Shown here: piece after piece, positions 38,286 through 38,907 of the stretch
How positions within the stretch are numbered: the first letter of the stretch is position 1
How the letters are laid out: each line of letters begins with the position of its first letter
Assembly: GCF_002854065.1 (NCBI RefSeq)
Contig: NZ_CP024147.1
DNA: 64,000 bases
DNA from: Escherichia coli
Lineage (GTDB): Bacteria > Pseudomonadota > Gammaproteobacteria > Enterobacterales > Enterobacteriaceae
Reading direction: 5' to 3' (one strand)
Program-made: the position numbers and the translations under genes
The notes under the pieces: model-generated
Database searches by the model: none
Seen by the model: the letters and a program-made list of their open reading frames with translations, nothing else
What the model was told of the DNA's origin: nothing

Positions 38286-38372
38286 TGGTGCGAGGGGGGG
38301 GACTTGAACCCCCACGTCCGTAAGGACACTAACACCTGAAGCTAGCGCGTCTACCAATTCCGCCACCTTCGC
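38286..38372 (-). tRNA. leuQ: tRNA-Leu (anticodon CAG)
   Basis: Reverse complement gives GCGAAGGTGGCGGAATTGGTAGACGCGCTAGCTTCAGGTGTTAGTGTCCTTACGGACGTGGGGGTTCAAGTCCCCCCCCTCGCACCA, 87 nt, cloverleaf with long variable arm. Confidence 0.9.
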
Positions 38373-38405
38373 ACAGTCATCTTACTTTTTTGATATCGCC
38401 TCGTT

Positions 38406-38492
38406 TGGTGCGAGGGGGGGGACTTGAACCCCCACGTCCGTAAGAACACTAACACCTGAAGCTAGCGCGTCTACCAATTCCGCCACCTTCGC
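38406..38492 (-). tRNA. leuP: tRNA-Leu (anticodon CAG), variant copy
   Basis: Same as the flanking copies except one substitution in the variable arm (plus strand taagaacact vs taaggacact). Confidence 0.85.
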
Positions 38493-38520
38493 CCAGTGCG
38501 AGCAATATCAACGTGGTTTT

Positions 38521-38607
38521 TGGTGCGAGGGGGGGGACTTGAACCCCCACGTCCGTAAGGACACTAACACCTGAAGCTAGCGCGTCTACCAATTCCGCCA
38601 CCTTCGC
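38521..38607 (-). tRNA. leuV: tRNA-Leu (anticodon CAG)
   Basis: Identical to the first copy; first gene of the leuV-leuP-leuQ operon on the minus strand. Confidence 0.9.
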
Positions 38608-38743
38608 ATACCATCAATTCTTAAAAAGAATTGCTACCACGGAGGCGCATTCTAGTGGTTTTCAGCTTTTCGTCAATAGTTAATTATCGCCGGAGGTGTA
38701 ATTGCTGGAAAAATGGCCATCAGCGGATTGTGGATAATTCGTT

Positions 38744-38892
<149 letters not shown>

Positions 38893-38907
38893 CTTGCGGC
38901 GGGATAC

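Follow-up and report, generated by a model that had tools for sequence, protein, structure and literature searches.

Does a single-base difference among three tandem tRNA genes reflect a faulty read, a gene in decay, a molecule with a role of its own, or an old and harmless allele? The question is raised by an array of three tRNA-Leu(CAG) genes in the 64,000-nucleotide stretch of Escherichia coli DNA that was analysed here (the window), in which the middle copy departs from its two neighbours at one position of the variable arm. A preliminary description, made from the sequence alone, had called this copy a minor isoacceptor variant within a tandem operon. Our comparison with E. coli K-12, with complete E. 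coli genomes and with other species indicates that the single-base variant, leuP, is real, ordinary and already known, being present in the K-12 reference and in the literature.

The locus is the leuQ-leuP-leuV operon

Based on ARAGORN, the window holds exactly three tRNA genes, each a tRNA-Leu(CAG) on the minus strand, and the anticodon cag lies at position 35 in all three. Each copy matches the Rfam tRNA model (RF00005) at 48.5 bits, the gathering score being 29. Since transcription proceeds on the minus strand, copies 3, 2 and 1 correspond to leuQ, leuP and leuV, respectively. The features of the locus, in the order of transcription, are as follows.

38649-38676, minus strand: sigma-70 promoter-like site (TTGACG/16 nt/TAGAAT) 5' of leuQ; 10 of 12 consensus matches, conserved with K-12
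38521-38607, minus strand: leuQ, the operon's first tRNA-Leu(CAG), C-type (C48); ARAGORN, Rfam tRNA at 48.5 bits, alignment to K-12 leuQ
38493-38520, minus strand: leuQ-leuP spacer, 28 nt; same as in K-12
38406-38492, minus strand: leuP, the middle tRNA-Leu(CAG), U-type isodecoder (U48); ARAGORN, three-copy alignment, Rfam; equals K-12 leuP
38445, minus strand: variant nucleotide; plus-strand A, U48 of the tRNA, with its pairing partner G55 at 38438
38436-38447, minus strand: variable-arm hairpin of leuP; tRNA positions 46-57, GUUC-UUAC-GGAC
38373-38405, minus strand: leuP-leuV spacer, 33 nt; A-run of 6 A here versus 7 A in K-12
38286-38372, minus strand: leuV, the operon's last tRNA-Leu(CAG), C-type; ARAGORN, three-copy alignment, Rfam, K-12 alignment

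The open reading frames of the window agree with K-12 MG1655 in the gene order bglJ-fhuF-yjjZ-leuV-leuP-leuQ-rsmC-holD-rimI, and both these frames and the K-12 annotation place leuP as the second of three genes that lie between rsmC and yjjZ/fhuF and share the strand of rsmC. In a 501-nt pairwise alignment with K-12 (NC_000913.3), the leuQ-leuP spacer and the three tRNA genes are identical, including the U in leuP, and nearby the window departs from K-12 only in having one A less in the leuP-leuV spacer and in a few flanking substitutions. The same 501 nt around the genes find a match over at least 80% of their length in approximately 5,400 complete E. coli genomes, where the annotation reads "tRNA-Leu (x3)" with yjjZ. 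The window locus is the standard E. coli leuQ-leuP-leuV operon, and its odd copy is the leuP allele that has already been documented: the literature describes LeuP as one variable-arm nucleotide away from LeuT, LeuV and LeuQ, and a tRNA-seq preprint groups leuQ, leuT and leuV as identical and sets leuP apart.

The three genes are transcribed as a polycistronic leuQ leuP leuV RNA that has a Rho-dependent end and is separated by RNase P alone, without RNase E (PMC2190699). Its position, together with this literature on the transcript (PMC2190699), points to the site at 38649-38676 as the putative promoter of the operon; the G+C-rich GCGCCTCC comes after it, as found by the consensus scan and the K-12 alignment.

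The interval from the leuQ promoter region to the 3' end of rsmC contains REP/BIME-type repeats, with an Rfam naRNA4 match (RF02564) at 38748-38830 on the plus strand (73.1 bits versus a gathering score of 59.5) and a second REP-like palindrome close to 38850-38895. In the leuP-leuV spacer, the plus-strand T-run at 38386-38391 is a homopolymer length polymorphism, reading 7 A on the coding strand in K-12 and many other strains.

A single base separates leuP from its neighbours

When the three 87-nt genes are aligned, 86 columns are invariant. The one exception is tRNA position 48, where leuQ and leuV have C and leuP has U; the plus strand accordingly carries an A at 38445 but a G at 38325 and 38560. 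The divergence of copy 2 from copies 1 and 3 in the preliminary description (ccgtaagaacact versus ccgtaaggacact) is thereby confirmed, and realignment leaves the copies distinct, with T versus C at column 48. The change of C to U within the variable-arm stem, said to turn a G-C pair into G-U, likewise holds, as C48-G55 becomes U48·G55, and the comparison with leuQ, leuP and leuV of K-12 returned an exact match, C,U,C. The wording "minor isoacceptor variant within a tandem operon" was right about a tandem variant; since the anticodon is the same in all three genes, however, leuP is an isodecoder and not an isoacceptor. In conventional numbering, we take the variant site to be at about Sprinzl position e12 of the variable-arm stem, paired with e22.

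Could the base have been introduced by sequencing or assembly, or have arisen recently in this strain alone? Only one base is involved and it lies among repeats, where consensus sequences are sometimes wrong, and several public assemblies carry tRNA-Leu genes of 84-89 nt, probably through errors in a C8 homopolymer. However, K-12 leuP has the identical base, as do approximately 4,500 E. coli records and the orthologous gene of many further genera. Because K-12 and these records agree, a read or assembly error is rejected, and both forms of this explanation are extremely improbable.

Each gene has eight consecutive C (G when read on the plus strand) at tRNA positions 72-79, corresponding to 38414-38421 in leuP. 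This run is reported to be the chief indel hotspot among the tRNA genes of E. coli (PMC8510543).

The variable arm is predicted to be somewhat weaker

In linear numbering, the variable-arm stem has four base pairs (G46-C57, U47-A56, C48-G55 and C49-G54) closed by the loop UUAC, within a variable region of 15 nt, in keeping with a bacterial class II tRNA-Leu. This proposed register is supported by three observations. The hairpin is present in the minimum-free-energy fold of the C copies; the helix is paired in every cell across 20 distinct enterobacterial Leu(CAG) sequences (100%), among which pairs 48-55 and 49-54 alternate between CG and UG; and pair 47-56 shows one fully compensatory change, from U47-A56 to C47-G56.

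Free-energy folding of the whole tRNA recovered the cloverleaf for neither the U form nor the C form. The energies quoted are therefore those of the fixed structure and of the isolated hairpin, and pairing was taken from the comparative pair counts. The hairpin alone is predicted at -2.3 kcal/mol for the U form versus -5.2 for the C form, and the fixed cloverleaf at -30.3 versus -33.2 kcal/mol. On these estimates, the variable arm of the U form would be at most somewhat less stable.

The predicted weakening of this hairpin, together with the loss of array copies in some lineages, is what one would expect if leuP were a decaying, poorly functional copy on its way to becoming a pseudogene. Against this, its covariance-model score equals that of its neighbours (48.5 bits), all cloverleaf pairs are kept, no further change has accumulated, and the identical U form is conserved across genera, being also the form of leuT in many of them. 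Given this score, the intact pairs and the conservation between genera, we reject the pseudogene reading, for which there is hardly any chance.

In the acceptor stem, cmscan flags an A5·C79 mismatch that all three genes share. Elsewhere these positions are G5·U79 in all Morganellaceae copies, and in the Lelliottia group A5-U79 in the third copy and C5·C79 in the first two.

The U form probably behaves like the C form

The variable arm is not recognised by E. coli LeuRS: arm sequence and folding are uncorrelated with leucylation, and armless molecules are active (PMC9976931). The leucine identity elements of E. coli are the discriminator A73 and, in the tertiary core, A15, G18G19 and U48 (PMC9976931). 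All of these are present in the genes studied here, as A84 before the encoded CCA, A15, G18, G19 and U59 in linear numbering, where U59 is Sprinzl U48. The anticodon, the acceptor stem, the discriminator A73 and the D and T arms of leuP are unchanged relative to its neighbours. With the identity features unaltered and the variable arm of no account to LeuRS, the U form should accept leucine and decode CUG as the C form does. The U form is thus most likely a functionally equivalent isodecoder, the change having little or no functional effect, as judged from the sequence. By the nearest-neighbour estimate the hairpin is nevertheless 2.9 kcal/mol weaker, and an effect of this on folding or turnover could count against equivalence.

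The U form among E. coli genomes

The distribution of the two forms was determined with queries of 91-92 nt, each joining a copy-specific upstream spacer to the initial 63 nt of the tRNA; at this length a single mismatch lowers the identity below 99%. Counts are records with a match among 5,429. The leuQ-leuP spacer followed by the U form (91-nt query) was found at 100% in 4,526 of the 5,429 records, with at most approximately 36 partial matches, and the identical leuP context is present in approximately 83% of 5,426 complete E. coli genomes. The same spacer followed by the C form returned 563 records at 100%; discounting some 453 partial matches to other copies leaves about 110. The U form was also found behind the leuQ leader (61 records at 100%) and behind the leuP-leuV spacer (at 100%, 1 record with 6 A and 61 records with 7 A), so that the pattern C,U,U occurs in 62 records. 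A U following the hisR-leuT spacer was found in 4 records, leuT being C-type in all but 4 of 5,425 genomes. The two counts of 61 come from different sets, Nissle 1917 being C,U,U but FHI_NMBU_03 U,U,C, and we treat their agreement as coincidental.

The leuQ-leuP spacer is absent from approximately 453 of the 5,429 records, most of which lack any U-type gene. No U-type copy at all is present in at least some 417 records (at least about 8% of complete E. coli genomes), O157:H7 included. The arrays of individual strains, given in the order of transcription, were:

K-12 and this window: C,U,C
Nissle 1917 and strain 25DN: C,U,U
FHI_NMBU_03: U,U,C
MG1655 assembly CP025268: C,C,C
2015C-4136CT1: two copies, U,C
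O157:H7 TR01: two copies, the second C-type
O157:H7 ATCC 43888: one copy at the locus, C-type
O157:H7 RIMD 0509939: one copy at the locus; C implied by a 98.4% partial match to the U query
O157:H7 Sakai: one C-type copy retained

The records without the spacer and the varied arrays point to homologous recombination between the repeats as the process by which copies are shifted, erased and deleted. Where minority lineages have U in other copies, or C,C,C, gene conversion between repeats is suggested, and in some cases assembly artefacts. The U form is dispensable: in O157:H7 ATCC 43888 and RIMD 0509939 the locus holds just one gene, of the C type, and no fewer than about 417 records have no U-type copy. 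Our literature searches returned nothing relevant on the loss of these genes in O157 or on the concerted evolution of bacterial isodecoders.

The U form in other species

A 30-mer containing the U form was scanned against 100,044 species genomes and gave at least 120 loci; only the U form was searched for, and the scan therefore gives no frequency of species without it. The arrangements found were:

C,U,C, three copies: at least 31 loci; Escherichia albertii, Salmonella enterica subsp. arizonae, Citrobacter, the Klebsiella oxytoca group, Raoultella, Kosakonia, Pseudocitrobacter, Phytobacter, Intestinirhabdus and others
C,C,U: at least 7 loci; the Lelliottia, Huaxiibacter, Trabulsiella and Pluralibacter group
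U,U,C: at least 1 locus; Kosakonia arachidis
U,C, two-copy array: at least 19 loci; Xenorhabdus and Photorhabdus
C,U, two-copy array: at least 9 loci; Morganella and Proteus
argX-hisR-leuT-proM with a U-type leuT: at least 34 loci; many genera

For nearly all listed arrays with enough flanking sequence, rsmC lies 114-812 nt upstream on the same strand. For the listed arrays of Enterobacteriaceae, RsmC identity to E. coli is 83-99%, yjjZ comes next on the opposite strand, and spacer identity to E. coli is mostly 73-100%; for those of Morganellaceae, RsmC identity is 54-58%. The C,U,C arrays, at least 31 in number, all sit directly downstream of rsmC, and their spacers are 64-100% identical to those of E. 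coli. The linkage to rsmC and the identity of RsmC and of the spacers imply that the arrays are orthologous and that the U form is old; its presence in the same rsmC-linked array across many enterobacterial genera indicates inheritance and not fresh mutation. In addition, fifteen genomes found through a U-type leuT have no U in the array, for example the K. pneumoniae type strain, the E. cloacae complex and E. whittamii; assembly gaps could lie behind some of these.

An alternative proposal is that the C/U dimorphism at position 48 is under selection: both forms would be ancient in Enterobacterales and useful in spite of recombination, and leuP would be functionally distinct. The cell might need two molecules, or one form might protect against a factor that targets the other, and differences in stability, processing or modification might be involved. 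Both forms do coexist in the orthologous rsmC-linked array, in Enterobacteriaceae (C,U,C at no fewer than 31 loci) as well as in Morganellaceae (U,C or C,U). In Morganellaceae, A5G and C79T are common to all copies while position 48 still differs, which suggests that the rest of the gene was homogenised and the dimorphism kept. Among the matches listed, the U of three-copy arrays with a single U is in the middle (at least 31) or last (at least 7) and never first, and leuT is likewise U-type in many genera. Retention of U in the middle copy of many genera, despite the reshuffling of the array in E. coli, could also reflect constraint and not pure neutrality.

However, the species scan was conditioned on the U form and so provides no denominator for coexistence, and the fifteen genomes with a U-type leuT have arrays without U. 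Within E. coli, the U form is missing from the minority of complete genomes that includes O157:H7, and the array takes other arrangements as well, namely C,U,U (Nissle 1917), U,U,C and C,C,C. The Lelliottia group carries C49T in its first two copies and C48T in the third; C49T is a wobble change of the same C-to-U kind at the adjoining stem position, as tolerated drift predicts. Moreover, the arm in question is ignored by LeuRS (PMC9976931). We therefore consider selection for two forms an unlikely explanation, although it deserves more weight than error or decay.

An old and probably tolerated allele

In summary, it is very probable that the locus is the standard leuQPV operon and that leuP is a known allele, an isodecoder with C-G replaced by U·G in the variable-arm stem, which is old and functions like its neighbours. 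Following the literature on the transcript, leuQ, leuP and leuV would be co-transcribed from one promoter 5' of leuQ and then split by RNase P. The U form of leuP probably came about by an ancient C-to-T transition, and recombination between the repeats now and then moves or erases it or deletes copies. Overall, the data fit a tolerated, slowly evolving wobble change combined with occasional recombination.

Although ordinary, the variant has its uses. Base 48 allows tRNA sequencing to separate leuP transcripts from those of leuQ, leuT and leuV, and it serves as a marker for recombination and for the loss of copies in the array. That both forms have persisted so long in enterobacterial genera may speak for weak selection or for slow tolerated drift.

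Comparison with known tRNA genes

The closest counterpart is leuP of K-12 MG1655 (b4369, tRNA-Leu(CAG)/tRNA-Leu1), which is likewise the middle gene and whose 87 nt, with U48, and upstream spacer are identical to those in the window. The gene is without differences, and the two loci diverge downstream, where the A-run of the leuP-leuV spacer is one base shorter here (6 A versus 7 A). The C-type genes of E. coli, leuQ, leuV and leuT, have 86 of 87 positions in common with leuP, with the same anticodon, acceptor stem and D, anticodon and T arms, but they carry C48-G55 where leuP has U48·G55, and leuT sits in the argX-hisR-leuT-proM operon.

The U-type tRNA-Leu(CAG) genes of other Enterobacterales have the same U48 in an array downstream of rsmC, and in Enterobacteriaceae they are often 100% identical to E. 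coli leuP. They are carried by Citrobacter, Klebsiella, Raoultella, Kosakonia and Salmonella arizonae as the middle array copy and/or leuT, and by Xenorhabdus, Morganella and Proteus as array copies. Morganellaceae are unlike E. coli in their two-copy arrays and in carrying A5G and C79T as well. The leuT gene, C-type in E. coli, has the U form in many Enterobacteriaceae and Morganellaceae; E. coli thus has an unusual 3:1 ratio of C-type to U-type genes.

Finally, the valV-valW genes of E. coli are likewise tandem, near-identical tRNA genes on one transcript that is processed by RNase P without RNase E (PMC2190699). They differ from leuQPV in amino acid and anticodon.
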